62,835 bases of DNA from a virus (lineage: Duplodnaviria; Caudoviricetes): IMG/VR virus record IMGVR_UViG_3300032282_004527, positions 1 to 62,835 of that record. One strand, given 5' to 3'. Below, in pieces: positions 7,001 to 21,026 of this stretch (the first letter of the stretch is position 1; each line of letters begins with the position of its first letter). Under the pieces are notes generated by a model, which saw nothing but the letters and a program-made list of their open reading frames with translations, was not told the origin of the DNA and ran no database searches. The translations under genes were made by a program, and so were the position numbers.

Positions 7001-7472
7001 TCATGATGGATATGTTTCTTCCGTTGGCCGCGTCAGCGTAATCTCTTCTGTTGTTATTATAAGACTCAAAAATAGTCCCCCCCAGGTCGTTGGGCCCTCG
7101 AGGAATCGGAAACAATTTAATTTCTACATTGTTTTTCTTAGCCCAGTCGTGTGCATACCTATCTACCCCTCCGCCTGGAGACTCCCCTAGATTGAGGACT
7201 AAGACCCGCCCCTTTTCTTCGACTTTTTTTAAAAGGTCGTCAAGAGTACTATTTACCACTTCTTCGCTTATTCCCGGCCATTGTATTCCATCCCTAGTCT
7301 CTGGCCCCCTATGCCCAGAAATACCAACAACATACTTTTCTTTGTTGGTATTGCTTGGTCCAGGCTCAGAAGTAGGTCCAGGCTCAGAAGTAGGTCCAGG
7401 CTCAGAAGTAGGTTCATCTTCGCCCGTAACACGGACATTATTCTGTTGGGAGTCTCCGCTATTTTGTGTCAT
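1014..7472 (-). CDS. Giant (~2150 aa) protein with N-terminal SLOG/YspA-like nucleotide-binding domain, coiled coils and C-terminal glycine-zipper segments
   Basis: VVGISGHR...GESPGGGVDRYAHDWAKK...GRNISIM...LAFSDG...GGTSHAIDAA matches the YspA/DUF2493 SLOG pattern; start placed at ATG 7472 after AAGGAG. Confidence 0.7.
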   Translation of the reverse strand: MTQNSGDSQQNNVRVTGEDEPTSEPGPTSEPGPTSEPGPSNTNKEKYVVGISGHRGPETRDGIQWPGISEEVVNSTLDDLLKKVEEKGRVLVLNLGESPGGGVDRYAHDWAKKNNVEIKLFPIPRGPNDLGGTIFESYNNNRRDYADAANGRNISIMRGVDLALAFSDGRGFGGTSHAIDAAKNKLKRNLIVVGPKGVVSEKWSPSTSTATSSRDSHVDRFLAEARQRVAQQKRAKTEKKLPRLRELPPGETYEVNSENAEVFKKHPELYELLGEDKENNLLTFRENFSVEPGPLIRVGRAEGDEIYRTAVVEVSLGEKAPREGTTGRSRLVFVRPDVEPNSRLGGEYSNSSRYFGGVSIWRPIDGVKVEKLTSQKEADDGGRRNVVQTAFVLDTDRFTEAPPDSLLDRSVSSKEDAAARESLYNDRMGEQFDTDSDESPEEDTEIDGEEERDFLNDDSLDDLDDLRSDRAGNVKSRVRSAARGPVRLRGDDPPTEEEIAEAKKLESLRSSSFRGLGELGQDFFDTLGSALAEKESNDPNRFKTAPGDYATHAGAGGIVNITWRDPSGRAVSPGALRNSAEFIDLFFRDPELSRREYRDISDPTQRVRYLGDTLRSIADRIEQNKLQTNEATTLAEEKLSTLAEAEKVSKEFDEEFKELTPAQQRALIAEQRGSSASLELAVIRSLRRNSNQLKNIRDKSASSIGRAQADANKAFGTFYTELLNLKNFVSDNPGVSTYNTSKITAALANYLNKQLEADNRVIEANNQIIKEAIRLARASDTEIEARSLGTISPISLGQSSSDLVKKIREGAEQNDEKARERIVELEQTRLNLEKEKKGYENDKNKKKRVEEIDDKIEDIKSELTRLVEIYGVPPASADPEHARRTFREREKIETAEKNKQNTKNIKEIQTSVLEDLTKEEYEKLQEQIKEKSSDNFPEDRITPENVPGGLGGILFEQSRITESPVGGPKRRASDLPGYGAMLEFLDATLEGASDKTVEELYEKAKESFERENAVTTKEKKASKLSKLTFEQAFDVFLEEHADKVRERQGYSSKKPTTWGEVVSNLFSDITKYNKNIGESLIKKTSQIIKNQKEQTKNKAIRQKRDVADHIPAALEQRRRSAQKGMGPHLGKLKVVADPLSISKDPREVFKRSLAEYLDAQHEYGSGRGATREIRGRVEKAVNNLFSSFDALPEEAKRELGMGLTRDEFFSRLTSEEEGHRVRTNDASYNRPERVIERELPLFAQTEKEISSLKNSLTSITDEQEKNRVQDEITKKTAELETYRNNLISILGSEDEIYKLEQRRKENAAKNVGKASSRFSVSWLLPKSDSTRNAADKEEIKQLMNSHLEGSGLTDENKEWLINNVDINKIDAEDFRRTISNDEVAKLRAEIDWGWPENFSADLIREIETTLPEYYSEYFKHIKNKKKNTRAFWGDRRSTLEVEDVGGIVNAARMNRRYTPSRGEKESQQKYQQRVDAVKEFYTYVDREPADQARRFRVLNAARLRGQQQGQQRPGGERTFTTSGGMGEIEAQKRIEENKQKLAVLETNNPNSQDITTIKQAIAEDERVLSEYRSSRAAEAEASRSPEDVQKIREAVIENWVSSRDPRIKEAAEKIKNNQKSLGVLDQFLSLRNDVSETNLPTIQDFAEYFRQVETTEGARGLRGVPMTIVRPEEGGVAQQPSTSPATSAPSLGVPSWLPEMSKSLMSSKGDRDLVERWDSIPLGVRSEYLNSLEGKTPSRPEVFPFINNNFKYYVNIPKEIIDTLGKMGVEGERLLEKIQEDMDNKETAARKNNPNFSRGSQRITPNEFFSQLRDIDQPWKLDRQTKQRFRGDQIHNPLLEESFRAELINKGENITYDEILNVLRKQRNERDSGKGLKAQRIQREATDLVRQSLEAQGAPQESPTPPPSKRGAILTPTEVVGPGISEEPPADPSKPPPRRVFKSGDRSSSAGFMGMTNQGLEDAKDLAEGVAGGYRKYLEETTGRKYAPYSDYVHSLTFPGLMGVGEAGKEYKTSGGDVGQALFGFGKGAAEGAVLGWALNKLPGLGGLLMGSGLGESLNEYSGHKIDTDYAKMLGGVGFLGAEVLAPKVMAPLNIAYMAYDALRPWYDVLTKGVDTPAPKPYIEERESPVYRLLNDLDPMQPQKKKRMPWEV
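7357..7410 (-). repeat. 3 x 18-bp in-frame tandem repeat encoding TSEPGP
   Basis: ggtccaggctcagaagta occurs three times in tandem. Confidence 0.95.
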
Positions 7473-7504
7473 TACCGTGGCCCTCTCCTTGCCTTCTTCT
7501 GCTT

Positions 7505-9409
7505 TTAAACTTCCCAAAAAGAGTGATTATTGCCGTAGTCTTCTTCGACACTCTCGTCACCGATATTTAAAACATGCGGAGGAATGTAATCGCCGGCCTG
7601 CTCTAGCGCCTTGATAGCCAACCCAAGAGCAATGACAAGATCGTCATGAGTTCCCTTTTTAGCCCCCATACCCCCGTCTCCGAGGTTTGCGAACACCTGC
7701 AATTCCCTGAGGAGGTCGATAGAACGGAGCACTAGTCTAGGGGCCCTTCTCTCGTCCATAACCGTTTTGAAAAGCATTCTTCCGGCCCCGCGCATGATCT
7801 CTCTCTGCATCTCACCAATCAGGACGGCTTTTGTCTTGTAGTTCATCTCCCACCCAAGGGCAGGGGCTAGTTTTTGCTTTTTTATGTCGTCGATTTTTTC
7901 CCATCGGCCTATCAGAGGGTATTGTACCTCTTTGAACCTCTTCTGTATAGCGTACCCAGCCCCCTGACCCCCTACCTCAGGCATGATCATTGCGGTGTTG
8001 TAGTAGTGCCCAAGATTCACCATCTCGTCCGCAAAGTCAAAAGCAGCAATAACCCTACTATTATATTCAGCAACCTGGTGCATCTCTTTTGAGAGTACTA
8101 CGCCTGCACAGAAGTCGGCATCCGACGCCGCTACTGCGTCATCTAGGTCTGCACCCGTAAGACCCTCCTCTGCCGCCTTACCAAGGGCCGCGTCACACCC
8201 TATCCCGTAAACCATCCCTTCCCGAGGAAACTCCCAGATCGTCAACGGTCCGTTAGGGTCCTCTACAAAATAAGGACGCCGGATCATGCCGTTGTCTGGG
8301 ACAATGAGCTTGCCCGTCCTACCGTTTTTAATCGTGTTCTCCCGATACCAGAGAAGAGACTGCTTATCAAACACTGTCTGGCCTGCGGCGGCAAAAGCCT
8401 CGTCTACGGTTGGCGCATATTCAAGGTCAAAGATGGCCTTATTTCCCTGACACTTCTCTGCGAGGGCTTTCCTGCGCCATGAGATGTTCCCCCAACTTAT
8501 CCCCTTCATCTTTTGACGTAGAGACTTCTCATACTCGTCGGCAGACCCTGCGATCTCCATCATCTCTTCGTGGGTCAGATTATGCTCGTAATCGAGCCAA
8601 AAGGGCAGAAATATGGGGCACCATTCGGGAAGGTCGTTAGACCCCTTGAGCTCTGTCTGGCGGTCTCTGGCACGCATAAACTCGTCATAGAAGTACCCGT
8701 CAGCACCGTTCGACGTAGACTCAATGAACGCATACGTCTCCGGCTCCGAGGGGATGCACTGAAGGATTGATCGGGTCGTAGCGTAAGCGTCGTTCCACAA
8801 AGCCACCTCCGTTAGATGGGCGCACTGATAGTGAGAGCCTCTACCAATGTGGACGTTCTTCGCCGTACCGATCTCTACGCCAGACATCAGCCCAGGATGG
8901 TAAAGACGAGTCGTCTCATCCGGGTTACCCATGATAAGCATCCCCTTGGTACGGCGATACTTCAAAGGACGCAGATTCTCCGGGAGAGTCTCGTAGTACA
9001 GTTCGGTCATGTTGAAGATTTTTGTAGCAGACCCGGACTCAAAGGAAACGATACGAGCATCCGTGTGCTTCCAAAAACGCATGCGCCAAAAAATGAGAGC
9101 CTCGATCAGCGTAGAGATGCCCACCTGACGAGCTTTCAGTACAATGAACCTTACCGGCTTCCTCTTCTCTCGATACTCTTGAATTTTTGCATGCACGATT
9201 TGCTGACCGCGATTAAACTTAAAGTCAGTAATCTTTCCCTCTTTTGTGTTGATTTTAAGATACTGCTCAATGAACGGCCGAGGATCTGATTGAAAAACCT
9301 TAAGGGCTGCGGCGTCTTCTGCCGAAGATAGAAAAGGATTCACTACGTTGTCCGACTGCCGCCATGCGAGTTCCATCGGAGTCAGTTTACTTAGGGCTTT
9401 ACCGGGCAT
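7505..9409 (-). CDS. terL: Terminase large subunit
   Basis: LKARQVGIST Walker A, HLTEVA Walker B, ESTSNG coupling motif, GCDAA and HDDLVIALGLA nuclease acidic residues. Confidence 0.93.
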   Translation of the reverse strand: MPGKALSKLTPMELAWRQSDNVVNPFLSSAEDAAALKVFQSDPRPFIEQYLKINTKEGKITDFKFNRGQQIVHAKIQEYREKRKPVRFIVLKARQVGISTLIEALIFWRMRFWKHTDARIVSFESGSATKIFNMTELYYETLPENLRPLKYRRTKGMLIMGNPDETTRLYHPGLMSGVEIGTAKNVHIGRGSHYQCAHLTEVALWNDAYATTRSILQCIPSEPETYAFIESTSNGADGYFYDEFMRARDRQTELKGSNDLPEWCPIFLPFWLDYEHNLTHEEMMEIAGSADEYEKSLRQKMKGISWGNISWRRKALAEKCQGNKAIFDLEYAPTVDEAFAAAGQTVFDKQSLLWYRENTIKNGRTGKLIVPDNGMIRRPYFVEDPNGPLTIWEFPREGMVYGIGCDAALGKAAEEGLTGADLDDAVAASDADFCAGVVLSKEMHQVAEYNSRVIAAFDFADEMVNLGHYYNTAMIMPEVGGQGAGYAIQKRFKEVQYPLIGRWEKIDDIKKQKLAPALGWEMNYKTKAVLIGEMQREIMRGAGRMLFKTVMDERRAPRLVLRSIDLLRELQVFANLGDGGMGAKKGTHDDLVIALGLAIKALEQAGDYIPPHVLNIGDESVEEDYGNNHSFWEV

Positions 9410-12770: not shown

Positions 12771-13661
12771 CTACTTCCCCCAGTACTTATAGGTTGCGTC
12801 TTGTACCCTAAGGATTGCCTCACCCCGCACCCAATCCGTGAGTGGGACTAAGTCACCCTTAGGCTCTAGGACTTTTTTCCCGTTCGGTGCTTCTAGCTTG
12901 AGCGTCTTCTTGTTTACCCAGACGTGTAAGTCCCAACGCTCCCACATGCCACTTAACGGCCCATAAGGGGCCGCATCGCTACCCGAGAGCCTCGGAGTAT
13001 CATAGGGCGGCTCAGGGCCCAAATCTACGTTATCTGCAGCCTCTGCGTGACTCATGAAGTTCCCTACCGGTATCCGCAGGTTGCAGCAGATCTCCGCAAC
13101 GTCCTTCGCAAACCGTCGGAGCTGATCAGGCGTAGCCTGCTCATCCCCTAAATCTGACGTCGTAGCGTAATGAAAACCCGCCAAGCATATAGCACACGAC
13201 CCTGAATTTCTTCCAAACGTGTGGTGATACATATCTACTGCACACGATTCGTTACTCAAAGACATAACCGCGTTATCCCGAACTAACACCATCTTATGAT
13301 AGTCTGAAAAATTTACACCTCTAGGACCCGCACTCCAGTGCCCATAGATCATCCTGTTGTTTGTAAATTCCTTCAAATACCACTTAAGGAACTTTGGGTC
13401 GCACTTTTTTTTGTATTCCGGTAGTAATTGTAGTCCGCCGTACATGTAGCTTACTCCTTTTTGACACCCCCCTTCTTTAACGTGGGTAGTGTCCTTGTAC
13501 TGCCTAATTGTACTTTCTTTCCAATCTTTGTCTAGTTTGTCTAGTAATTCCATGACTTTCTTAGCTATTTCTTTGTTTCTTGTTTTTTCTTCTGGCGTCA
13601 TAGCTCTGCCCCCCCTACACCCTGAGGGTTCTCGATAGTCCTTTGTTTTTCCTCTTGGCAT
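12771..13661 (-). CDS. N-acetylmuramoyl-L-alanine amidase (Amidase_2-like endolysin)
   Basis: IYGHWSAG, YH, HTFGRNSG, TPDQL, MSHAEAAD and RWDL Zn-amidase motifs. Confidence 0.8.
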   Translation of the reverse strand: MPRGKTKDYREPSGCRGGRAMTPEEKTRNKEIAKKVMELLDKLDKDWKESTIRQYKDTTHVKEGGCQKGVSYMYGGLQLLPEYKKKCDPKFLKWYLKEFTNNRMIYGHWSAGPRGVNFSDYHKMVLVRDNAVMSLSNESCAVDMYHHTFGRNSGSCAICLAGFHYATTSDLGDEQATPDQLRRFAKDVAEICCNLRIPVGNFMSHAEAADNVDLGPEPPYDTPRLSGSDAAPYGPLSGMWERWDLHVWVNKKTLKLEAPNGKKVLEPKGDLVPLTDWVRGEAILRVQDATYKYWGK

Positions 13662-13775
13662 ATGCGTGGGTGAAAAAACGTAAAATGCCGTGGGGCCTCA
13701 TCTATAACACACGACGTATCGTAGTACCTACGTTACGGGCCCGGGGGGGCTCCGCCCTCTACATACGCTTGTACT

Positions 13776-13984
13776 GAGTGGTTGCGTCTCGTCCCCCGCA
13801 TTCGCGAGGGGGACGGAGACGCAACCCTCTCGCGGGCCCTCCCAGGTACCCACGCTTGTACTAGTACATACCGTCTACGGGGTGCGTACTAGGGCATACC
13901 GGGTACTTTTTTGGGAGTGGTTGCGTCTCGTCCCCCGCATTCGCGAGGGGGACGGAGACGCAACCCTCTCGCGGGCCCTCCCAG
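13776..13984. repeat. Two identical 70-bp direct repeats (13776-13845 and 13915-13984), each a long hairpin with a CCCCCGCATTCGCGAGGGGG apex
   Basis: GGTTGCGTCTC-GTCCCCC...GGGGGAC-G-GAGACGCAACC seen twice, 139 bp apart. Confidence 0.95.
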
Positions 13985-14191
13985 TGCACACGCTTGTACT
14001 AAGCGATACGTGCAGCGCTGGCGCGTGGGAGGGGCGGCCAGCCGATGCACGGCTCTCTGCAGAGCACGGGCTGCATCGCTGCGCGCCATCCCGCACCGCA
14101 TGCTCCCCCTACGGGCTCCACGGGGGGGTGGACTAAGTCGACGGGCGCCACCGCCCATCCTCGCGGCAACGCGAACCGGGTGGCTGGCACT

Positions 14192-14228
14192 TTCCGTTCG
14201 GAACGTTCCGTTCGAAACGTTCCGTCGA
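14192..14228. repeat. 14-bp tandem repeat TTCCGTTCGRAACG, about 2.5 copies
   Basis: Seen directly, ~40 bp upstream of the first early gene. Confidence 0.8.
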
Positions 14229-14269
14229 CTCTGTCCGACTTACGTCCGAAAAAAAAGAGAGGTAGTCAC

Positions 14270-14578
14270 ATGTACTACGTGACCTACATGCTGTGGGAGG
14301 GCGCTGTCGAAGGGCAGCAGCCACTCCCCGCAGGTCTCGGCGAGGCTGCCGCAGTAGCCTACGTCGAGACAAACTTCCCCCTTCTGGGGCCGTACCGCAA
14401 GGTGTGGCTCCATGAAGGAGACGGAGCAGGTCGGACCTTCGGGTTCCACCTGTGTCGTGAAGCCCAGCGCTGGGTGCCTGCGGGCGTCCCAGAGTGCTGG
14501 GTGAGGTGCTGGTCCTGCAGCGACCAGCAAGAGGCCTTCGAGGCAGCCGAGGAGGAGGCCTGCAGCAGAGGGCTGTAG
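14270..14578 (+). CDS. Hypothetical early protein
   Basis: GAGAGG RBS, ATG 14270 (MYYVTY...), C-terminal CWSC. Confidence 0.7.
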   Translation: MYYVTYMLWEGAVEGQQPLPAGLGEAAAVAYVETNFPLLGPYRKVWLHEGDGAGRTFGFHLCREAQRWVPAGVPECWVRCWSCSDQQEAFEAAEEEACSRGL

Positions 14579-14589
14579 GTCTCTTCTTC

Positions 14590-14616
14590 CGCCCTGAGCA
14601 TGGCGTTAAACTGCTC
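14590..14616 (+). other. Pseudoknot-like repeat family PK-A, copy 1
   Basis: CGCC-CT-GAGCA-T-GGCG-TTAAAC-TGCTC. Confidence 0.7.
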
Positions 14617-14687
14617 CCGACTAGGCGGCTCCTAGACTAGCGAGGTAACGCAACTAGCCTCGCAGCCTTCAGAAAGGAGGAACAAGG

Positions 14688-15125
14688 TTGCTAAAAACGA
14701 CCAACCGGCGTAACCCGTCGGTGGCGGCGGTCGAGCAGGAATTCACACGCCTGCCTCACCCCGACATCGACGGGGCCGAGGTTCTGCGGATCGACATCGG
14801 TCGGCCGCAAACCCTCGGCAACCCCTTCACCAGCAAGCCCTCACGCTTGGGCGCTTGGGTGAAGCGAGGAGTCCGGTTTGACGTGGTTACAGTGCGCACC
14901 GCACAGGAGGCCGTGGAAAAATTCCACGGGCATCTACGTGCGCACTGGACCCAGCAGACGGCCGTCCGTCGTATCCTGGAGCGCATCGCAGACTTCTGCG
15001 AGGCGAACCAGGACAACGAGGTCGAGTTCGTGTGCTGGTGTCACCCGGCCCCCTGCCACGGGCACGTGCTCGAGTACGCCATCAAGGGCATACTCAATGC
15101 GCGCCGGCAGCGGGAGCGGGACTAA
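14688..15125 (+). CDS. DUF4326-domain protein
   Basis: IGRP...GNPF and CWCHPAPCHGHVL signature; strong AGAAAGGAGG RBS. Confidence 0.85.
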   Translation: MLKTTNRRNPSVAAVEQEFTRLPHPDIDGAEVLRIDIGRPQTLGNPFTSKPSRLGAWVKRGVRFDVVTVRTAQEAVEKFHGHLRAHWTQQTAVRRILERIADFCEANQDNEVEFVCWCHPAPCHGHVLEYAIKGILNARRQRERD

Positions 15126-15176
15126 CCACGCGCCGGCCGTCCAAGGACTCTGTTGCAGGTCCCGCCCCCCCTCTTG

Positions 15177-15203
15177 CGTCCTAAGCATGACGTTAAACTG
15201 CTT
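15177..15203 (+). other. PK-A copy 2
   Basis: CGTC-CT-AAGCA-T-GACG-TTAAAC-TGCTT. Confidence 0.7.
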
Positions 15204-15236
15204 AGCACACGCTTGCGTGTGTTTTACCTTGGGGGT

Positions 15237-15287
15237 TGCACCCCCTCCTCGACCCCCCGCATTCGCGAGGGGGGTCGAGGAGGCGGT
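15237..15287. repeat. Long hairpin with CCCCCGCATTCGCGAGGGGG apex, copy 3
   Basis: CCTCCTCGACCCCCC...GGGGGGTCGAGGAGG stem. Confidence 0.85.
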
Positions 15288-15345
15288 CCGAATCGCCTGA
15301 CCACCCATGCGCCCTTCGCACAAGCAAGGGCAGAAAGGAAAAAGC

Positions 15346-15504
15346 ATGAGCGTCTACGAGACCGACCTCACCTGCGACGGCTGCGGCGCAAGTGAGAGCC
15401 CCTGCCAAATCGACTGCCCTTCCGGGGGCCTCGATCCGGCCGACCTCCTCCTACACGACCTTCGGGTCGTGTGGGGGGAGATCTCCAGCCTGCGCTGCAA
15501 CTAA
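15346..15504 (+). CDS. Small Cys-containing hypothetical protein
   Basis: CAGAAAGGAA RBS, ATG 15346, CDGC...C...C. Confidence 0.6.
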   Translation: MSVYETDLTCDGCGASESPCQIDCPSGGLDPADLLLHDLRVVWGEISSLRCN

Positions 15505-15635
15505 GCCCAGGCTGGAGACGGGGTTGGGGGACCCCGATAACAAAACCCCCTGCTCCCCCTACTCGCACCATCTCTTCAACCCTCCGCTTCGCTGAGGAGG
15601 GTTGAAGAGACGATGCGAGTCGTCTACACCCGGCC

Positions 15636-15723
15636 GCCTCTCCGTGGGCTTCATACACGGCTGCGGGCGAGGACCCCGTCAACATCCTCAAGCATCCGCC
15701 TACCCGTGGGCATCGTACACGGG
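15636..15723 (+). other. Pseudoknot-like repeat family PK-B, copies 1-2 (15636-15660 and 15698-15723)
   Basis: GCC-TN-YCCGT-G-GGC-N4-TAC-ACGG. Confidence 0.6.
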
Positions 15724-15740
15724 AAGAGAGGAGTGCAGCC

Positions 15741-16067
15741 ATGCGCTACACATTCCCTATGCAAACACTGAAGAGCCTCGACCAACTGGTCGAGAGCCTG
15801 CAAGCAGACTCGGAGGCCGCATGCCTCCTGGACTGCGAACCAAACGGGCACGAGTGTGAGAGCAACCGCTCTCACGCTCAGACAATGAAAGAGGTGGTAG
15901 ACGCGGCTCACCGCGCCACCACTATAGCCGAGGCAATCGAGGTCGCGCGCGACCTCGGATTCTATAACATCCAGGGGTATCGCATGATACCCTTGGAAAT
16001 CATCCAGGCAGCGGTGGCAGCCGCAGCCTCGGAAGACCTAGAGACGGGCGACGAGCCCGCTCTCTAG
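15741..16067 (+). CDS. Hypothetical early protein
   Basis: GAGGAG RBS; 108 aa. Confidence 0.7.
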   Translation: MRYTFPMQTLKSLDQLVESLQADSEAACLLDCEPNGHECESNRSHAQTMKEVVDAAHRATTIAEAIEVARDLGFYNIQGYRMIPLEIIQAAVAAAASEDLETGDEPAL

Positions 16068-16073
16068 GCAAAG

Positions 16074-16100
16074 CGTCCTGAGCACGACGTTAAACTGCTC
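16074..16100 (+). other. PK-A copy 3
   Basis: CGTC-CT-GAGCA-C-GACG-TTAAAC-TGCTC, 6 nt after a stop codon. Confidence 0.7.
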
Positions 16101-16175
16101 GGGGGTTGGCATACCTCCTCGCTAGGGTTGAGCCTCGCTCCCCTAACCAGGAGGTCTGCCAAAAAAACCGGGGCA

Positions 16176-16366
16176 GCGCCTGCCGGCGACTGCCTGTGGC
16201 CTACCGGGCCGCAAGGAGACGGCGCCTGCCGGCGCACTGCCTGTGGTCTACCGGGCCGCAGGGAGACGGCGCCTGCCGGCGCCTGCCTGTGGTCTACCGG
16301 GCCGCAGGGAGACGGCGCCTGCCGGCGCCTGCCGACGCTCTGCCTGTGGCCTACGAGACCACAGAG
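16176..16366. repeat. 46-47-bp GC-rich tandem repeat, 3 full units plus partials
   Basis: CTGCCTGTGGYCTACCGGGCCGCARGGAGACGGCGCCTGCCGGCGC at 16190, 16237 and 16283; partial at 16340. Confidence 0.95.
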
Positions 16367-16422
16367 GGGGTGAAGAAGTAGGTCGGCCTAAGTCTGTAGC
16401 CCTAAAAAAACCAGAGGAGGAA

Positions 16423-16566
16423 ATGGCCTACATGGAAATAGACCAGGAACTAATCGAAATGTGGACGGGACTTACTACCCGCCCCGCCCGCGTACTAATG
16501 CCGGCAACAATCATCGCTGCCGGAAGCGTAGCAATATGGCTGGTAGTTATGGCGTTCGCACCATAA
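16423..16566 (+). CDS. Small membrane protein
   Basis: GAGGAGG RBS; C-terminal hydrophobic helix. Confidence 0.6.
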   Translation: MAYMEIDQELIEMWTGLTTRPARVLMPATIIAAGSVAIWLVVMAFAP

Positions 16567-16582
16567 CTACTAAAAAGGGGGA

Positions 16583-16636
16583 TGCACCCCCTCCTCGACC
16601 CCCCGCATTCGCGAGGGGGGTCGAGGAGGCGGTGCA
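16583..16636. repeat. Long hairpin with CCCCCGCATTCGCGAGGGGG apex, copy 4
   Basis: Near-identical to the 15237 copy. Confidence 0.85.
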
Positions 16637-16656
16637 AATCGCCTGGCCGACCATCT

Positions 16657-16683
16657 GCCTACCTGCGGGCATCGTACACAGGT
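16657..16683 (+). other. PK-B copy 3
   Basis: GCC-T-ACCTGC-G-GGC-ATCGTAC-ACAGGT, directly before the RBS of the 16704 gene. Confidence 0.6.
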
Positions 16684-16703
16684 AAACAAGAAAGGAAGAC
16701 AAC

Positions 16704-17105
16704 ATGAACAACGTCAAGGTAGACCCATTCACCGGCGAACAAGCGCCGGAAGAAACCACCCCAACCTCCACCGCGTGGGACATGTTCCCACAGGAAATCA
16801 CCTTCATCACCGTTGTCCGCAAGGACACGGGAACCAAAGTCTGCTACCGAGTCAACCGACAGGGGCTGGACGCCTGGGCGGCGGGGCAAGTAGTCCTATC
16901 CGCACAAGAAAAGTCCGGCCTCTTCAAGGGCCTCGCCTTCCTGCAGGCATCAGGGGCATACCCCTACAAGAACCTGAAGGAAGACAAGACCGGCAGCCGC
17001 CACCACGAGCGACTCGCCGAGGTCTTCGACCGGGTCGTCATGAAGGGCATGACGACCATCACGGTGAACGGGGAAGAAATCCCCTTCGAGTTCATCGTTC
17101 ACTAA
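16704..17105 (+). CDS. Hypothetical early protein
   Basis: AGAAAGGAAG RBS; 133 aa. Confidence 0.75.
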   Translation: MNNVKVDPFTGEQAPEETTPTSTAWDMFPQEITFITVVRKDTGTKVCYRVNRQGLDAWAAGQVVLSAQEKSGLFKGLAFLQASGAYPYKNLKEDKTGSRHHERLAEVFDRVVMKGMTTITVNGEEIPFEFIVH

Positions 17106-17110
17106 ACACA

Positions 17111-17137
17111 CGTCCTGAGCACGACGTAAAACTGCTC
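17111..17137 (+). other. PK-A copy 4
   Basis: CGTC-CT-GAGCA-C-GACG-TAAAAC-TGCTC, 5 nt after a stop codon. Confidence 0.7.
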
Positions 17138-17149
17138 CGGCTTAAACGT

Positions 17150-17250
17150 CTGCCTATGGTCTACCAGACCGCAGGGAGACGGCGCCTGCCGGCGCGCTGC
17201 CTGTGGTCTACCGGGCCGCAGGGAGACGGCGCCTGCCGGCGCACTGCCTG
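17150..17250. repeat. Second cluster of the 47-bp tandem repeat (2 units plus partial)
   Basis: Units start at 17150, 17197 and 17244. Confidence 0.9.
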
Positions 17251-17531
17251 CGTACTCGAAAGAGAAAAAATAAAAATTAAAGCCAAAGACTAAACACACG
17301 GCAACAACACCCAATGCGAATGTAAGTCGCTGGCTTTGACAAATTTTCGATATGAAAAAAAGATAACCCCCTAAAAAACTTAAAGTCAGTAGGCCTAGAA
17401 AAATAAGCAGCCAACCCCCGTTCGCCCGCCCCTTCGGGGCGAGGGCGGGCGAACGGGGGTCGGCGGCTTTTATTTGCCTATGGTCTATCCTTGAACCTAC
17501 CCCATAGCCTAGGTCAATAGAAAGGAACAAC

Positions 17532-17759
17532 ATGGCAGACTCAAAACAATGGTTTGAAGAACTTAAGAAACGAATCGTAACCATCCAAATGACTTACGAA
17601 GATGCTGAAGACCTCGTATATGCATGCAAAGTACTACGGACACAATACCTAAACTGCGGGGCTAAACTTCCCGCTGAACATGCACTCTACATGGCAAGCA
17701 TCATCGAAGACGCACAAGACGTAGTTGAAAAAGAATACAGTAAGGAAGGTAACTGGTAA
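17532..17759 (+). CDS. Hypothetical protein
   Basis: AGAAAGGAACAAC RBS. Confidence 0.7.
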   Translation: MADSKQWFEELKKRIVTIQMTYEDAEDLVYACKVLRTQYLNCGAKLPAEHALYMASIIEDAQDVVEKEYSKEGNW

Positions 17760-17926
17760 TGGAAAAAACACAGTGGACTACTGACGAACTCAGAGAAGAA
17801 TTCGAAGTCGTTGGCTTCATGGCACCATTCGTTGTAGTTGTTAGAAAGTCTGATGGACAAAAAGGGTCAATGGAGTTCGTCCACCACCCTAGAATCTACT
17901 CCAACTTCGTACCGTACAACGCATAG
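17759..17926 (+). CDS. Small hypothetical protein (55 aa, not in the ORF track)
   Basis: MEKTQWTTDELREEFEVVGFMAPFVVVVRKSDGQKGSMEFVHHPRIY...; TAATG coupling and AAGGAAGG RBS. Confidence 0.7.
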   Translation: MEKTQWTTDELREEFEVVGFMAPFVVVVRKSDGQKGSMEFVHHPRIYSNFVPYNA

Positions 17927-17941
17927 GAAGGACAACAAAAT

Positions 17942-18340
17942 ATGCCACAACCACATACGTACTACGTCGTCCGACACTGGACTTCCGGAAAAAACGAGAA
18001 CAAATGCTACACGTGCAACAAGTGGCACCTACGGTACTACGGCGCTGTCCACTGCGCAGGACTCGTCAAGGCACACGTAAATGCTTATTCAGTTGCTAAA
18101 ATTAATCAAGAGGGGGAACTCTTTACAGACATATCCCTCATACACGAAATCCCTTACTTGAAAGAAAAAGCATCAAATAGGCTCAGCGAAAGAACAAAAC
18201 GAAATGAAAAGAAAAAGAATCAACAAGCAGACGAAGCACAACGACGACTTCGCGAAAAAATGAGAAACGACAGGATTGAAGAAATCAAAAACCTGTCCGT
18301 CATCCTCGCTGCTGCTACAGCAATAATCGCTACTATGTAG
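17942..18340 (+). CDS. Hypothetical protein
   Basis: AGGAAGG RBS; CYTC motif. Confidence 0.65.
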   Translation: MPQPHTYYVVRHWTSGKNENKCYTCNKWHLRYYGAVHCAGLVKAHVNAYSVAKINQEGELFTDISLIHEIPYLKEKASNRLSERTKRNEKKKNQQADEAQRRLREKMRNDRIEEIKNLSVILAAATAIIATM

Positions 18341-18356
18341 AAAAGAAAGAAACACT

Positions 18357-18470
18357 ATGGGTGCAATGAAACGACTACTCGAAGCCATACTCATGCCAGA
18401 CAACGACATGAGGCCCATCGACTGCGGATGCGCAACAGAGTTCTTCCTAGGACCTAACTACCGAATCTAA
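18357..18470 (+). CDS. Small hypothetical protein (37 aa)
   Basis: MGAMKRLLEAILM... fills the gap and has a purine-rich leader. Confidence 0.4.
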   Translation: MGAMKRLLEAILMPDNDMRPIDCGCATEFFLGPNYRI

Positions 18471-18472
18471 TC

Positions 18473-18503
18473 AAAGCCTGCCCGTGGGCTTTATACACGG
18501 GCA
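18473..18503 (+). other. PK-B copy 4
   Basis: AAAGCC-TGCCCGT-G-GGCTTT-ATAC-ACGGGCA, between a stop codon and an RBS. Confidence 0.65.
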
Positions 18504-18514
18504 CAAGGACAACA

Positions 18515-19096
18515 ATGAACACAAAGCCAGAACTAATCAATAGCTTAGTAAGAAACAGCGACAAATACGCACGACTTGTCAGCAACATCAAGGCACACCC
18601 CTCTACCATAGAGCACCAGGCCGAAACACACATCGGCTTTCACATCTGGGTTGGATCTACACCCGACCATATCAAACCTCTCATATGCAGAGAGTTCACA
18701 CACCCCTTCTGCGGATACTGCTACAGACTAAACAAAGACCTAAAGTACGCTCAGGACGAAGCAGAACACTCCGCTAACCTGCTCGACGCAGGAGAACTAG
18801 AAGGAGCATTCGACTCACTAAGAGAGGCTATCGAAACACTTAGACCCTGGGGAGTGCCAGAAAAACTCGAGCAAGCACTCACACTACTTAATGAAATAAA
18901 AACAAGTCTTGGCAACGAACCCAAGTTCCTATCACCTACCCTACTGAAAAAAATTGAAGAGTATGTTCGAATCAATTTTGACGACGAATATGGACTCGGA
19001 AATGGAGTCGCCGTTCTTATCGGACGGTACGCAATGCGTGGATGGGAAAACGCTGTCAACGCAATCAACTACATGATGTGCAACAAAGTACACTAA
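18515..19096 (+). CDS. Hypothetical protein
   Basis: 193 aa; AAGGACAAC RBS. Confidence 0.7.
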   Translation: MNTKPELINSLVRNSDKYARLVSNIKAHPSTIEHQAETHIGFHIWVGSTPDHIKPLICREFTHPFCGYCYRLNKDLKYAQDEAEHSANLLDAGELEGAFDSLREAIETLRPWGVPEKLEQALTLLNEIKTSLGNEPKFLSPTLLKKIEEYVRINFDDEYGLGNGVAVLIGRYAMRGWENAVNAINYMMCNKVH

Positions 19097-20366: not shown

Positions 20367-21026
20367 ATGGAAGTAAAGTGGTCAGACAGCACTAAGACAG
20401 CATACTCATTCAATATCCCATCTGAAAAGACATGCCCTGGAAAAACCCCCACGTGCGTATCCAAATGCTACGGACTCAGAGGACGATTTCGTCCTGAGAT
20501 GAATGGCTCAGCAACAACAGACTATAACTTCAAAGTTCTTCAAGACGATGTAACGGCTATTGAAAGAATTAAATGGCCAAACAAAAAAAGCATCAACAGC
20601 TTCAGAATAAACGGAGTAGGAGACATATACTCCCTAGAATTTGGCAGATCTATTTTCAAGATGTGCCACAACAACAACAACAAAGAATTCTGGCTGTACA
20701 CAAGATCCTTCGACATCATTGATACACTTCTCAGTGAACAAAACAAACCTGAAAACCTCGTGCTGTTCTTGTCTGCAGATGTTGACAACGTAAATAAAGC
20801 ACACGAACTAGCCGAAAAATATAACCTACCCGTAGCCTACATGGGACACGACGTAGCAACAGAAAAAGACGCTTTCGTATGCCCAAGTACTACAGGTGAC
20901 CCTAGGTTCAAACTATCTAAAAGAAAAGAAGAAGCGCCATGCATCAAATGCAAGTACTGCTTTAATAGAAAAGAAAAATTCGATATTTTCAGAACTAAAA
21001 AGGGCGTAAGATTCCTCTATCACTAA
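20367..21026 (+). CDS. Gp88-like Cys-rich (radical-SAM-like) protein
   Basis: FNIP...TCPG...C...CY, FRINGVGD, FWLYTRS and C-terminal CIKCKYC. Confidence 0.75.
   Translation: MEVKWSDSTKTAYSFNIPSEKTCPGKTPTCVSKCYGLRGRFRPEMNGSATTDYNFKVLQDDVTAIERIKWPNKKSINSFRINGVGDIYSLEFGRSIFKMCHNNNNKEFWLYTRSFDIIDTLLSEQNKPENLVLFLSADVDNVNKAHELAEKYNLPVAYMGHDVATEKDAFVCPSTTGDPRFKLSKRKEEAPCIKCKYCFNRKEKFDIFRTKKGVRFLYH

Follow-up and report, generated by a model that had tools for sequence, protein, structure and literature searches.

Results

The window analyzed here is the entire 62,835-nt stretch of IMG/VR virus record IMGVR_UViG_3300032282_004527, assigned to the Caudoviricetes. It carries four copies of a 27-nt element, designated PK-A, at positions 14590..14616, 15177..15203, 16074..16100 and 17111..17137 (copies 1 to 4), all on the + strand and each fitting the 27-nt pattern with 0 mismatches. 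When up to 3 mismatches were permitted, exactly these four + strand matches to CGYCCTRAGCAYGRCGTWAAACTGCTY were found in the window, and 100 dinucleotide-preserving shuffles of the window yielded none; the four-copy repeat of the original prediction was thereby borne out. No further copy was found in the whole virus record, and a relaxed shape search across the window disclosed no copy beyond the four.

In copy 1, stem 1 (S1) pairs 14590-14593 with 14602-14605 (CGCC/GGCG), loop 1 occupies 14594-14595, stem 2 (S2) pairs 14596-14600 with 14612-14616, the junction base is 14601, and loop 3 spans 14606-14611 (TTAAAC). In motif coordinates, S1 joins positions 1-4 to 13-16 and S2 joins positions 7-11 to 23-27. 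Copy 1 differs from the other three in S1 (CGCC/GGCG vs. CGTC/GACG), and copy 2 differs from the other three in S2 (AAGCA/TGCTT vs. GAGCA/TGCTC). Outside the stems, only columns 12 (T, T, C and C in copies 1-4) and 18 (T, T, T and A) vary, and loop 3 of copy 4 is TAAAAC. The arrangement of stems and loops proposed earlier therefore describes the window sequence correctly. Nested-only folding energies of the copies were unremarkable (z -0.2 to -0.7), as expected given that the folding tool cannot score a pseudoknot.

Copies 1-4 begin 11, 51, 6 and 5 nt past the stop codons of the ORFs at 14045-14578, 14688-15125 (TTG start; DUF4326), 15741-16067 and 16704-17105, respectively, which agrees with the 5-51 nt range originally given. 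Downstream surroundings differ from copy to copy. The TTG start of the DUF4326 ORF lies 71 nt past the end of copy 1, and a terminator-like hairpin with a T-run (15207-15222, then TTTTACC) begins 3 nt past copy 2. Between copy 3 and a 47-codon ORF at 16423-16566 lie a hairpin region and four tandem repeats of 46-47 nt (16173-16364). Copy 4 precedes about 2.5 copies of the 46-47-nt repeat, an A+T-rich stretch and an inverted repeat with 33-nt arms at 17399-17475; no + strand ORF of at least 40 aa downstream of it starts before 17532. No sigma-70-like promoter was predicted at the window copies.

Since the four window copies provide a single compensatory event per stem, the fold is established chiefly by relatives elsewhere. 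Three covariation searches were performed, each with a different part of the motif left free, and in each of the three alignments the covariation score was above all 500 shuffles. Paired cells accounted for ~91-96% across the alignments (91.3% in the stem-2-free search), as opposed to 17-56% when partners were slid by 1-3 columns. With positions 3, 14, 7 and 27 free (search 1), 78 distinct matches were recovered, chance matches included, in which pair 3-14 was UA 31, AU 27, CG 6, GC 2, GU 3 and other 9; the covariation score was 0.227 vs. 0.102 +/- 0.008 for shuffles, none of 500 reaching it. All five S2 pairs varied on both sides in the stem-2-free search. When stem 1 was left free (n=67), pair 1-16 was paired in 46 matches, pair 2-15 was GC 39, CG 15, AU 8, UG 3, UA 1 and unpaired 1, pair 3-14 was paired in all 67 with 5 pair types, and pair 4-13 was CG 65, GC 1 and UA 1, CG also being the pair in all four window copies. 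PK-A thus consists of two crossing helices, each of which covaries, and is an H-type pseudoknot; the selected fold originally proposed is supported by hundreds of independent copies in other phages.

Unpaired positions are unequally constrained. With the six positions of loop 3 set to NNNNNN, AAAC was retained in 52 of 71 distinct matches, chance matches included; in the same set A19 was kept in 59, A20 in 63, A21 in 60 and C22 in 62, as opposed to position 17 (T 36, C 16, A 11, G 8) and position 18 (T 35, A 19, C 10, G 7). T23 was retained in 63 of 67 matches of the stem-2-free search. All four bases occur at the junction (T 59, A 23, C 12, G 2; n=96). Position 5 was fixed in most search patterns and in the context filter, and C5 occurred in nearly all true matches of the one search that left it open. 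The near-invariant unpaired bases are C5, A19-A21 and C22.

Two observations show that the motif is read as RNA in the sense strand. G.U outnumbered A.C by approximately 3:1 in two pattern-only sets (39 vs. 12 and 16 vs. 6), and the position of the motif relative to upstream stop codons is sharply bounded. It starts 5 nt past the stop codon in 81 cases, 6 nt in 38, 7 nt in 25 and 8 nt in 18; of 443 copies, only 16 start closer than 5 nt, 212 lie at 5-12 nt, and 215, about half, are more than 12 nt from any stop. The distances have no 3-nt periodicity. The reach of the ribosome past the A site along the mRNA channel fits the 5-nt floor.

PK-A is a large phage RNA family located between genes in phages of many bacterial groups, with 482 distinct contexts in 421 fetched loci, as compared to 5 in reversed-sequence controls. 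Its carriers include temperate phages that use the host polymerase and phages of unrelated hosts, and tandem copies occur. In a scan of the whole window, no Rfam 15 family reached gathering score at the motif; looser cutoffs were equally empty, both over 13600-18600 (E up to 10, preQ1 and other riboswitches included) and in five further motif-bearing loci (E up to 1). Rfam covariance models did not place PK-A among riboswitches (e.g. preQ1), pistol, hammerhead or twister ribozymes. Novelty, which had been made to depend on Rfam, accordingly stands with respect to that database and is curtailed by a characterized relative in the literature, coremin, discussed below. A second family, PK-B, is unrelated to PK-A in sequence and has the same shape and contexts.

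Downstream of the knot lie genes as diverse as scaffold, SSB, unknown early genes and tRNAs, and the next start codon comes at no fixed distance (13-60 nt past the motif). Head scaffolding proteins account for 16 of the 75 downstream genes examined, whatever the gene upstream: in Firmicute phages the knot stays with the downstream scaffold gene, and the upstream position is taken by a minor head protein, small inserted genes or regulators. A tRNA starts (RNase P site) 2-5 nt past the knot in 7 loci. Type III hammerhead ribozymes adjoin its 3′ end, four in L219 and two in L135 as identified by reading; a hammerhead core regular expression caught 3 and 2 of these, of which 2 and 1 reach the Rfam gathering score. 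Pistol ribozymes are present on the same contigs as PK-A in L025 and L022. A terminator was found within 45 nt past the knot in 19 of 482 contexts. A separate class of 13 loci, mostly labeled Deltaproteobacteria, consists of a tiny ORF, a knot containing the stop codon, and usually a terminator-like hairpin ~20-45 nt further on, with nothing else in the transcript. Immediately past 98 of 482 copies there is a T-rich tract (at least 5 T within the first 8 nt), compared with 39 on the upstream side; every Firmicute scaffold-upstream copy examined has one. The 30 nt past the knot are less structured than control windows (mean -2.6 vs. -3.0 and -3.2 kcal/mol).

Discussion

The closest known element to PK-A is coremin, also called xrRNA-C, a motif of RNA viruses that infect plants and fungi. 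We tentatively favor, while recognizing that it could well be wrong, the reading that PK-A is a phage coremin-type pseudoknot that acts as a compact roadblock, mechanically obstructing enzymes that travel 5′ to 3′ (RNase J-type exonucleases and ribosomes), and so insulates or stabilizes the RNA downstream. The reading draws on the covarying helices, the sense-strand RNA, the likeness to coremin, coremin-type hexaloops in phages, and the stalling known for coremin and other xrRNAs. PK-A would be transcribed within the sense mRNA and fold on itself into a compact H-type knot in which stem 1 has 3-4 bp, loop 1 has 2 nt (C followed by a pyrimidine) and stem 2 has 4-5 bp; a single junction base and a 6-nt loop 3 with AAAC at its end complete the fold. 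Placed in gaps between cistrons or in 3′ UTRs, just beyond the footprint of a ribosome terminating on the preceding gene, it would halt RNase J-type exoribonucleases as well as post-termination ribosomes that slide or keep reading. The RNA that follows, be it the leader and coding region of the next gene, a tRNA, a ribozyme or a non-coding tail, would be shielded and would become independent of the upstream cistron. In the window, an early G+C-rich operon (~14.0-17.5 kb) would be cut into separately stable units, with stable RNAs predicted to begin at copies 2, 3 and 4.

Protection of what follows fits the downstream scaffold genes and tRNAs, the tandem copies and the low structure past the knot. 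Several observations point the other way. Where a terminator lies within 45 nt there is little downstream to protect, and hosts with no known 5′-3′ exonuclease are represented by 6 Aeromonas phage records carrying the motif and by 7 of 5426 E. coli genomes carrying the hexaloop form. A second hairpin (hp2), which coremin needs, is not a feature of PK-A, and the phage form might therefore stall ribosomes and not exonucleases. Among the four functions originally offered for the fold, a nuclease barrier gains the most support, by way of a stem and spacer held in common with the coremin xrRNA, and this support is one of analogy.

An unlikely alternative is that the knot caps 3′ ends, blocking 3′-to-5′ exonucleases (PNPase, RNase II or R) and stabilizing the upstream cistron once a downstream cut by RNase P, a hammerhead or RNase E/Y has been made, or behind a terminator. 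Tight placement at 5-12 nt behind upstream stop codons, the T-rich tracts, the tiny-ORF loci and window copy 2 with their terminator-like hairpins, and tRNA 5′ ends immediately past the knot would all be consistent with such a cap; the 3′ end of the knot directly abuts hammerhead stem III, so that cleavage would leave a tail of 6-7 nt. Because cuts by hammerheads or RNase P part the knot from the RNA downstream, those cases are better suited by a cap than by a roadblock. However, the Firmicute knot keeps company with the downstream scaffold gene while the upstream gene changes, the known relative coremin blocks enzymes arriving from the 5′ side, and an ordinary hairpin would suffice as a cap, which would leave the strict loop conservation unexplained. 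An intrinsic terminator or attenuator of pseudoknot type, with stem 2 beside a U-run releasing RNA polymerase, would likewise account for the T-rich tracts, including those before Firmicute scaffold genes, but we regard it as very unlikely: the U-run is missing from ~80% of copies, all four in the window included, tRNAs, ribozymes and ribosome-binding sites directly downstream need to be transcribed, and stopping just before scaffold and capsid genes makes little sense. Most improbable is an element acting in double-stranded DNA, either a promoter, perhaps of hairpin type, or a protein site. Its repeated position ahead of many genes (13-60 nt from start codons, 2-5 nt from tRNAs) would suit a promoter, and one S. 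aureus phage annotation has a program-predicted promoter over the motif. Nevertheless, a duplex site would not be expected to show Watson-Crick covariation of crossing helices, with G.U tolerance confined to the sense strand, the sharp 5-nt floor has no DNA-level reason, the motif occurs directly before terminators as well as in temperate phages using host polymerase and phages of unrelated hosts, and no sigma-70-like match is present at the window copies.

The conserved unpaired bases bear on two further alternatives. Occurrence in many phyla, a pseudoknot and several near-invariant unpaired bases (C5, A19-A21, C22) are what Weinberg et al. 2017 use as criteria for “sophisticated” RNAs, and with the tandem copies they would suit a specific binding site, whether a riboswitch-like ligand sensor or an operator for a conserved host or phage protein, that controls neighboring genes. 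We consider this quite improbable, as there is no constant gene association and no recognizable expression platform, the distance to the next start and the junction base vary, preQ1 and other riboswitch models gave no match at E up to 10, and PK-B argues for a role of the fold over that of one ligand. The same bases, together with adjoining hammerheads and pistol ribozymes on the same contigs, could mark a small self-cleaving ribozyme or dedicated processing site, and ribozyme classes have been discovered through such neighborhoods. A length of 27 nt, though, is far below that of any known natural self-cleaving class; no Rfam ribozyme model matches PK-A, the related coremin RNA was stable in vitro in published assays (10.1101/522318; PMC10520033), and self-cleavage seems to have little to recommend it. 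A signal to the ribosome for readthrough, frameshifting or tuned termination of the upstream gene is also highly improbable. Coremin does promote -1 frameshifting in vitro (PMC10321173), and the stop codon within the knot in the tiny-ORF class recalls two plant-virus coremin copies reported with a stop codon inside the motif. As for spacing, stimulators of frameshifting and readthrough sit at 5-8 nt, a distance at which many knots follow a stop. But about half of the copies are more than 12 nt from any stop, the distances lack 3-nt periodicity, no slippery heptamers were seen in the flanks read, readthrough in the examples read in frame ends after ~10-17 codons, short of the next gene, and window copy 4 has an in-frame TAA inside the motif.

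If the roadblock reading is correct, PK-A is a very small, autonomous RNA device by which phages govern mRNA decay and uncouple the translation of adjacent genes. It would work in hosts as different as Firmicutes, cyanobacteria and candidate phyla, and bacterial RNA biology would gain a first xrRNA-like class. Unequal amounts of neighboring proteins made from single long phage transcripts, such as portal and scaffold, would be explained, and a plant-virus element would be linked to phages, whether through sharing long ago or through a striking case of convergence. With hundreds of natural variants, the phage family provides the covariation that had been missing for the pseudoknot proposed in coremin, and a 27-nt insulator or stabilizer would be useful in synthetic operons. 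A bolder and somewhat more doubtful claim is that one coremin-type knot is common to eukaryotic RNA viruses and the DNA phages of most bacterial phyla, that in bacteria it is the first known natural RNA resistant to exoribonucleases and ribosomes, a portable 27-nt “full stop” at which RNase J and sliding ribosomes come to a halt and which thereby fixes where phage RNAs end and how long they last, and that its explicit Watson-Crick stem 2 settles the disputed plant-virus pseudoknot.

Coremin is carried by Beet necrotic yellow vein virus RNA3 and others (Dilweg, Gultyaev, Olsthoorn 2019 preprint 10.1101/522318; Dilweg et al. 2023, PMC10520033), and its published motif is GUCCGAAGACGUUAAACUAC (10.1101/522318; PMC10520033). 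It has in common with PK-A the stem CGUC/GACG (3-4 bp), the fixed loop-closing C-G, the stretch GACGUUAAACU and, after the stem, GUUAAACU; both reside in RNA that is untranslated or intergenic, can occur in tandem and can embed a stop codon. Mutagenesis of coremin has shown that the loop-closing C-G is needed, U-A being tolerated and G-C not, that base pairs 2 and 3 are free if paired and pair 4 is dispensable, that the first loop base has to be a pyrimidine, and that in the spacer GUUAAACUAC the first two U's are replaceable whereas AAA, C, U and A are essential (10.1101/522318; PMC10520033). PK-A has the same first hairpin (hp1: 3-5 bp, pairing over sequence, fourth pair dispensable), the loop-closing C-G, a pyrimidine as first loop base, and a spacer in which positions 17 and 18 are free and AAAC is kept; where coremin has A, its position 24 is G and pairs with C10. 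Position by position, natural variation in phages thus mirrors the published mutational tolerance of coremin.

The two elements also differ. Coremin loops follow YGAD (4 nt) or YGNNAD (6 nt), whereas the PK-A loop has 8 nt, CYRAGCAN, and falls outside both forms because its second base is U or C and not G; five of its bases form Watson-Crick pairs with the 5 nt past the spacer. In coremin, hp2 directly follows the spacer, but PK-A has no obligatory second hairpin: a hairpin of at least 4 bp with at least 2 G-C pairs and a loop of 3-8 nt begins 0-5 nt past the knot in 51 of 463 cases, vs. 65 of 463 at 40-45 nt downstream and 105 of 463 in the upstream control. PK-A belongs to double-stranded DNA phages of bacteria, which are without Xrn1, and coremin to RNA viruses of plants and fungi. 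Hexaloop forms that fit YGNNAD are nonetheless present on double-stranded DNA phage contigs (CGAAAT 13, CGCAAT 12, CGGAAT 6, CGAGAT and others; n=112 contexts), in cultured Enterococcus, Lactobacillus and Synechococcus phages, and in the few E. coli genomes noted above; the phage occurrences indicate that the coremin type as such is present in phages. By experiment, coremin stalls Xrn1 one nucleotide before the stem and blocks scanning ribosomes (10.1101/522318; PMC10321173), and hp2 is strictly needed for its Xrn1 resistance (PMC10520033; PMC10321173).

The xrRNA-WCC elements, Watson-Crick-style coremin variants from a frameshift screen and one natural virus (Dilweg et al. 2023, PMC10321173), stimulate frameshifting without a need for hp2, while their Xrn1 resistance still requires it (PMC10321173). 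Like PK-A, they have an explicit pseudoknot between hairpin loop and spacer, with one base as loop 1; their stem 2 has 3 bp in the context of a 4-nt loop, compared with 4-5 bp and a 2-nt loop 1 in PK-A. The BWYV-class knot of luteovirids is a compact H-type pseudoknot in which loop 1 is short, one base forms the junction and the last loop is rich in A, a layout that PK-A shares, although PK-A has no upstream slippery site and lies past stop codons rather than inside ORFs. The likeness of coremin to BWYV has been stated, and the BWYV knot fails to stall Xrn1 even with hp2 added (PMC10321173).

The xrRNAs of flaviviruses and tombusviruses are protein-free mechanical blocks to 5′-3′ exonucleases that occur in tandem, as PK-A also does, but their ring-like folds are far larger and do not resemble it in sequence. 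One flaviviral xrRNA also stops bacterial RNase J1, and such blocks therefore need not be enzyme-specific. In bacteria, 5′-proximal stem-loops or bound ribosomes shield mRNA from RNase J1 or RNase E, the same effect on downstream mRNA that is proposed for PK-A; these stabilizers are ordinary hairpins or ribosome-binding sites of one gene each, whereas PK-A is a conserved, portable pseudoknot family. Its likeness to coremin could be the result of convergence on a good small fold.

Results

Exactly four matches to the pattern of PK-A, a 27-nt H-type pseudoknot ("the knot"), were found in the window, at 14590, 15177, 16074 and 17111, in agreement with the four copies originally predicted. All lie on the + strand without mismatches. 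The pattern had no match in 100 shuffles, and a relaxed shape search of the window found no copy beyond the four. The compensatory changes that had been proposed for both stems are present in the window copies, and the predicted spacing of 5-51 nt past a stop codon was borne out: copies 1 to 4 are separated from the preceding stop codon by 11 nt (ORF 14045-14578), 51 nt (ORF 14688-15125; DUF4326, E 2.8e-12), 6 nt (ORF 15741-16067) and 5 nt (ORF 16704-17105). Scans of Rfam 15 at gathering and permissive thresholds found no family at the motif.

The size and spread of the PK-A family were estimated with several searches; the counts are lower bounds, and the variants sampled depend on the search patterns. 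A scan of IMG/VR contigs in which only positions 8-11, 13, 15-17 and 19-26 were fixed returned at least 119 loci, and nearly all matches also carried the unfixed 5′ part. A shape-and-motif filter over 421 loci yielded at least 482 distinct contexts with 275 distinct 27-mers, compared with 5 matches in reversed-sequence controls. With 30-nt BLAST, the motif was detected in 136 cultured-phage records, including phages of Staphylococcus (83), Mycobacterium (10), Microbacterium (10), Lactobacillus (7) and Aeromonas (6), with Geobacillus phage D6E and phages of Nostoc, Microcystis, Synechococcus, Paracoccus, Arthrobacter and Moorella among the others. At least 120 loci were found when one genome per prokaryote species was scanned. 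Their record titles name Firmicutes, Actinobacteria, Cyanobacteria, Chloroflexi, Planctomycetes, Bacteroidetes, alpha-, beta-, gamma-, delta- and epsilon-proteobacteria, and Saccharibacteria and other candidate phyla. The literature searched, main texts with few subscription papers among them, held no description of the phage motif and no link between coremin and phages; the motifs described in the accessible parts of the Patience, Microbacterium-phage and 10,000-candidate-RNA papers are other than PK-A.

Each structural part of the knot (stem 1, positions 1-4/13-16; loop 1, 5-6; stem 2, 7-11/23-27; junction, 12; loop 3, 17-22) was tested by a search that left it free, and all distinct matches were counted, chance matches included. 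With positions 3, 14, 7 and 27 free (n=78), pair 3-14 was UA in 31, AU in 27, CG in 6, GC in 2, GU in 3 and another combination in 9. The covariation score of this set was 0.227, as against 0.102 ± 0.008 after shuffling, and 0 of 500 shuffles scored as high. When stem 2 was left free, all five of its pairs varied on both sides and 91.3% of the stem was paired (8-26, GC 31 and AU 26; 9-25, GC 43, AU 12, CG 3 and UA 3; 10-24, CG 34, UG 16 and UA 8; 11-23, AU in 63 of 67); over the whole structure 95.2% of cells paired, compared with 17-55% with slid partners. With stem 1 free, 2-15 was paired in 66 of 67 matches, 3-14 in all 67, and 4-13 was CG in 65; pair 1-16 was paired in only 46. Leaving loop 3 free showed that positions 17 and 18 are variable, while AAAC was retained in 52 of 71 matches. 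These searches demonstrate that PK-A is an H-type pseudoknot in which stem 1 has 3-4 bp, loop 1 has 2 nt (C followed by Y), stem 2 has 4-5 bp, the junction is a single base and loop 3 has 6 nt, the last four being AAAC. Energy prediction restricted to nested structures found PK-A unremarkable, as expected.

Three observations argue that the knot acts as sense RNA rather than DNA. G·U pairs outnumbered A·C combinations 39 to 12 and 16 to 6 in two pattern-only sets. A same-strand ORF of at least 60 codons ended within 400 nt upstream of the motif in 443 of the 482 contexts. The distance from stop codon to motif was 5 nt in 81 cases, 6 in 38, 7 in 25, 8 in 18 and 9 in 17, and fell below 5 nt in only 16 of 443. 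Five nucleotides remain covered by a ribosome whose A site holds the stop codon, so the knot sits as near as possible without being unwound by the terminating ribosome. In Synechococcus phage S-EIV1, all five copies are on the coding strand of a leftward block, and no sigma-70-like promoter was predicted at the window copies. PK-A is thus a conserved, independently folding sense-RNA pseudoknot located in untranslated gaps, clear of terminating ribosomes.

Downstream of the knot, the next start codon mostly follows after 13-61 nt. Among the downstream ORFs scanned (n=75), 16 encode head scaffolding proteins, 4 belong to phrog_1392 and 3 encode SSB; the window has its own phrog_1392 gene at 20367-21026. 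In Firmicute siphoviruses the knot is constant before the scaffold gene, and the gene upstream varies (minor head protein, small inserted genes or a Rha-like regulator). Before scaffold genes of Firmicute phages (for example L017 8661-8720, L053, L057 and L128; L numbers denote contigs or loci), a U-rich run comes after the knot, then a short conserved hairpin, and finally an A-run and the Shine-Dalgarno sequence. Some Firmicute phages have a terminator-like hairpin just 5′ of the knot (L092, L125, L128). The arrangement may be a larger regulatory leader.

Other contexts include tRNAs, ribozymes and tiny ORFs. A tRNA starts 2-5 nt past the knot in 7 loci, and within 250 nt of the knot 13 tRNAs lie downstream versus 3 upstream. 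Type III hammerhead ribozymes, identified by eye, start directly at the 3′ end of the knot four times in L219 and twice in L135, and three hammerheads reached the Rfam gathering score; the knot and an adjoining hammerhead could stack as one unit. Pistol ribozymes were observed on two other motif-bearing contigs (L025, L022). Tandem knots occur in L133, L147/L366, L211 and L306, and in 19 of the 482 contexts the 45 nt past the knot contain a terminator-like hairpin. In 13 loci, most labelled Deltaproteobacteria (L166, L185, L199, L214, L217, L230, L146, L183, L205, L222, L223, L171, L134), a conserved tiny ORF with a Shine-Dalgarno sequence terminates inside the knot, at a TAG over positions 1-2 or a TGA at 6-8. 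These ORFs have 18-25 codons and the consensus MRWMFPHATHCS.CGS..., from which L134 diverges. An upstream promoter-like TTGACA is present in most of the loci. In most, a terminator-like hairpin, judged by eye, lies ~20-45 nt past the knot, and 8 of these hairpins were called by the automated scan.

The window record is a linear dsDNA phage sequence of 62.8 kb with an estimated completeness of 48%, carrying genes for terminase, family A DNA polymerase, helicases, tail fibres and four tRNAs. Gene direction changes from leftward (up to 13661) to rightward (from ~14045), and the rightward block opens with 3.3 kb of G+C-rich sequence dense in repeat families. In 2-kb windows, G+C content is 63% and then 56% across 14001-18000, compared with 41-56% elsewhere. 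This island at the start of the rightward genes may be a module gained from a phage of a higher-G+C host. BLAST of the 5-kb PK-A region against a phage collection gave no match. Two huge ORFs lie on the − strand, 1014-7517 (2167 aa), which adjoins the large terminase gene, and 49441-54762 (1773 aa). Neither matched a Pfam family at E values up to 0.01, and their sole PHROG match was a weak one of ORF 1014-7517 to a GTP-binding-domain family (E 2.9e-6).

Tandem repeats of 46-47 nt follow two of the knots on the + strand, with ~4 copies at 16173-16364 after copy 3 and ~2.5 copies at 17147-17260 after copy 4. By eye, each unit is able to form two short G+C-rich hairpins. No ORF of at least 40 aa follows copy 4 until 17532, and the repeats may be non-coding RNA. 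An inverted repeat at 17399-17475 (33-nt arms, 88% complementary, 11-nt gap, A/T runs on either side) looks like a two-way terminator closing the G+C-rich module. A terminator-like hairpin lies directly 3′ of copy 2. An 83-nt unit forming a hairpin with 19-22-nt arms occurs at 15231-15313 and 16577-16659 (90% identical), a 70-nt unit with an 18-nt-arm hairpin is repeated exactly, 139 nt apart, at 13776-13845 and 13915-13984, and three copies of a 29-nt unit lie within 13748-14001, between the divergent gene blocks.

A further repeat, PK-B (core GCCTNCCNGNGGGCNTNNTACACNGG), occurs on the + strand at 15631-15670, 15693-15732, 16652-16691 and 18471-18510. It has the H-type layout of PK-A with a different sequence, and in the window it adjoins the 5′ side of the ribosome-binding sites of the ORFs starting at 15741, 16704 and 18515. 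At least 33 viral loci in IMG/VR carry PK-B. Most copies precede a start codon by 11-17 nt and abut the Shine-Dalgarno sequence on its 5′ side, and one lies 4 nt ahead of a tRNA. Covariation is seen at the middle pair of PK-B stem 2 (GC 25, CG 5, AT 2, TA 1). Since two unrelated sequences share one shape and similar contexts, the fold itself, rather than one specific partner, appears to be what counts.

Discussion

We infer, by analogy, that the knot would serve as a mechanical roadblock on RNA, tentatively one that operates in the 5′-to-3′ direction. This direction is preferred because the coremin motif of RNA viruses acts that way, because a viral xrRNA also stops bacterial RNase J1, because the knot accompanies highly expressed downstream genes, and because the RNA past the knot is kept unstructured. 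The opposite arrangement, a 3′-end cap protecting upstream RNA, would better fit the RNase P and hammerhead cleavage sites and the terminators found directly past some knots; we consider it improbable. Each of the remaining rivals (binding of a ligand or protein, recoding, self-cleavage, termination, a DNA promoter) accounts for fewer of the facts.

More specific candidates were rejected. A sigma-70, sigma-54 or T7-like promoter lacked a fit to consensus and was not predicted, and an N4-type hairpin promoter is at odds with carriage by temperate phages without their own polymerase. Against an RNase P substrate mimic, the 5′ terminus exits at the opposite end of the stacked helix from the 3′ terminus. 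Against a boxA/nut-like site, a U-run was seen after only ~20% of copies and after none in the window. Pairing with 16S rRNA is contradicted by covariation of position 3, through which complementarity is lost, and a type III antitoxin mimic by the absence of toxin-specific variation. For a likeness to preQ1-I and pistol RNAs, there was no model match.

Under the preferred 5′-to-3′ roadblock, copy 1 would shield the DUF4326 cistron, and copy 2 would either start a short, stable RNA or protect the long hairpin and small ORF beyond. Copies 3 and 4 would head RNAs consisting largely of the 46-47-nt repeats, the one starting at copy 4 finishing near the inverted repeat and holding no ORF of at least 40 aa. 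In plant viruses, coremin yields non-coding RNAs shielded at the 5′ end (10.1101/522318, PMC10520033), a parallel to the putative repeat RNAs that is suggestive only.

The comparison with coremin came from a full-text literature search with 10-letter pieces of the PK-A motif. Coremin, or xrRNA-C, is the motif GUCCGAAGACGUUAAACUAC of plant and fungal RNA viruses. Its first hairpin has 3-4 bp (CGUC/GACG) and a 4-nt loop, and is followed by a conserved spacer and then by a second hairpin (hp2). The motif halts the 5′-3′ exonuclease Xrn1 1 nt ahead of the first hairpin, is a barrier to scanning ribosomes and stimulates −1 frameshifting, and its authors suspected an unresolved pseudoknot like the BWYV frameshifter (10.1101/522318, PMC10520033, PMC10321173). 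PK-A and coremin have the stem and the run GACGUUAAACU in common. The position-by-position agreement between published coremin mutagenesis and natural phage variation is more telling than this shared sequence. Coremin requires the loop-closing C-G, which is fixed across phage copies. At pairs 2 and 3 coremin accepts any bases that pair, and phages show free covariation there; coremin can do without pair 4, which phage copies often leave unpaired. Coremin tolerates replacement of the first two spacer bases, and phages vary freely at both, AAA, C and U are essential in the one and retained in the other, and the pyrimidine obligatory as coremin's first loop base corresponds to C5 in nearly all true phage matches.

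A scan of loop lengths returned at least 112 contexts (3 nt, 2; 4 nt, 11; 5 nt, 5; 6 nt, 77; 7 nt, 16). Five of six tetraloop (CGAA) matches checked were eukaryote-type RNA viruses (RdRp, tombusvirus p33, benyvirus P25) and were not counted as phage copies; the search thus recovers the classical coremin motif. The hexaloops CGAAAT, CGCAAT, CGGAAT, CGTAAT and CGAGAT obey coremin's published YGNNAD rule, and some of them resist Xrn1 in plant-virus work. Hexaloop forms (CGNNAT) occur in dsDNA phages and prophages (for example L472, L473, L483, L485, L495 and L503); at least 11 contigs between 18 and 60 kb long carry them, as do cultured phages of Enterococcus, Lactobacillus and Synechococcus. Back-to-back hexaloop arrays were seen in L499, L522 and L527. 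The hexaloop form is also present in 7 of 5426 E. coli genomes, in a few mobile elements (for example L578 1198-1225), and one of these copies precedes an integrase-domain gene by 105 nt; the PK-A octaloop query matched none of 5426 E. coli genomes. A tie between carriage and hosts with RNase J is only suggestive, and the E. coli hexaloop copies count against it.

PK-A is not a plain member of the coremin family. Its loop has 8 nt and breaks coremin's G-second rule, and unlike in coremin five loop bases form a Watson-Crick helix with bases past the spacer. It also lacks a second hairpin, which in published work is strictly necessary for nuclease resistance by coremin; a hairpin started 0-5 nt past the knot in 51 of 463 cases, versus 65 and 105 in control windows. 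Watson-Crick-style coremin variants (xrRNA-WCC) stimulate frameshifting without hp2 and block Xrn1 only with it (PMC10321173). Together with the missing hairpin, this behaviour points to one of two possibilities: either the long stem 2 of PK-A replaces hp2, or the phage form acts mainly on ribosomes.
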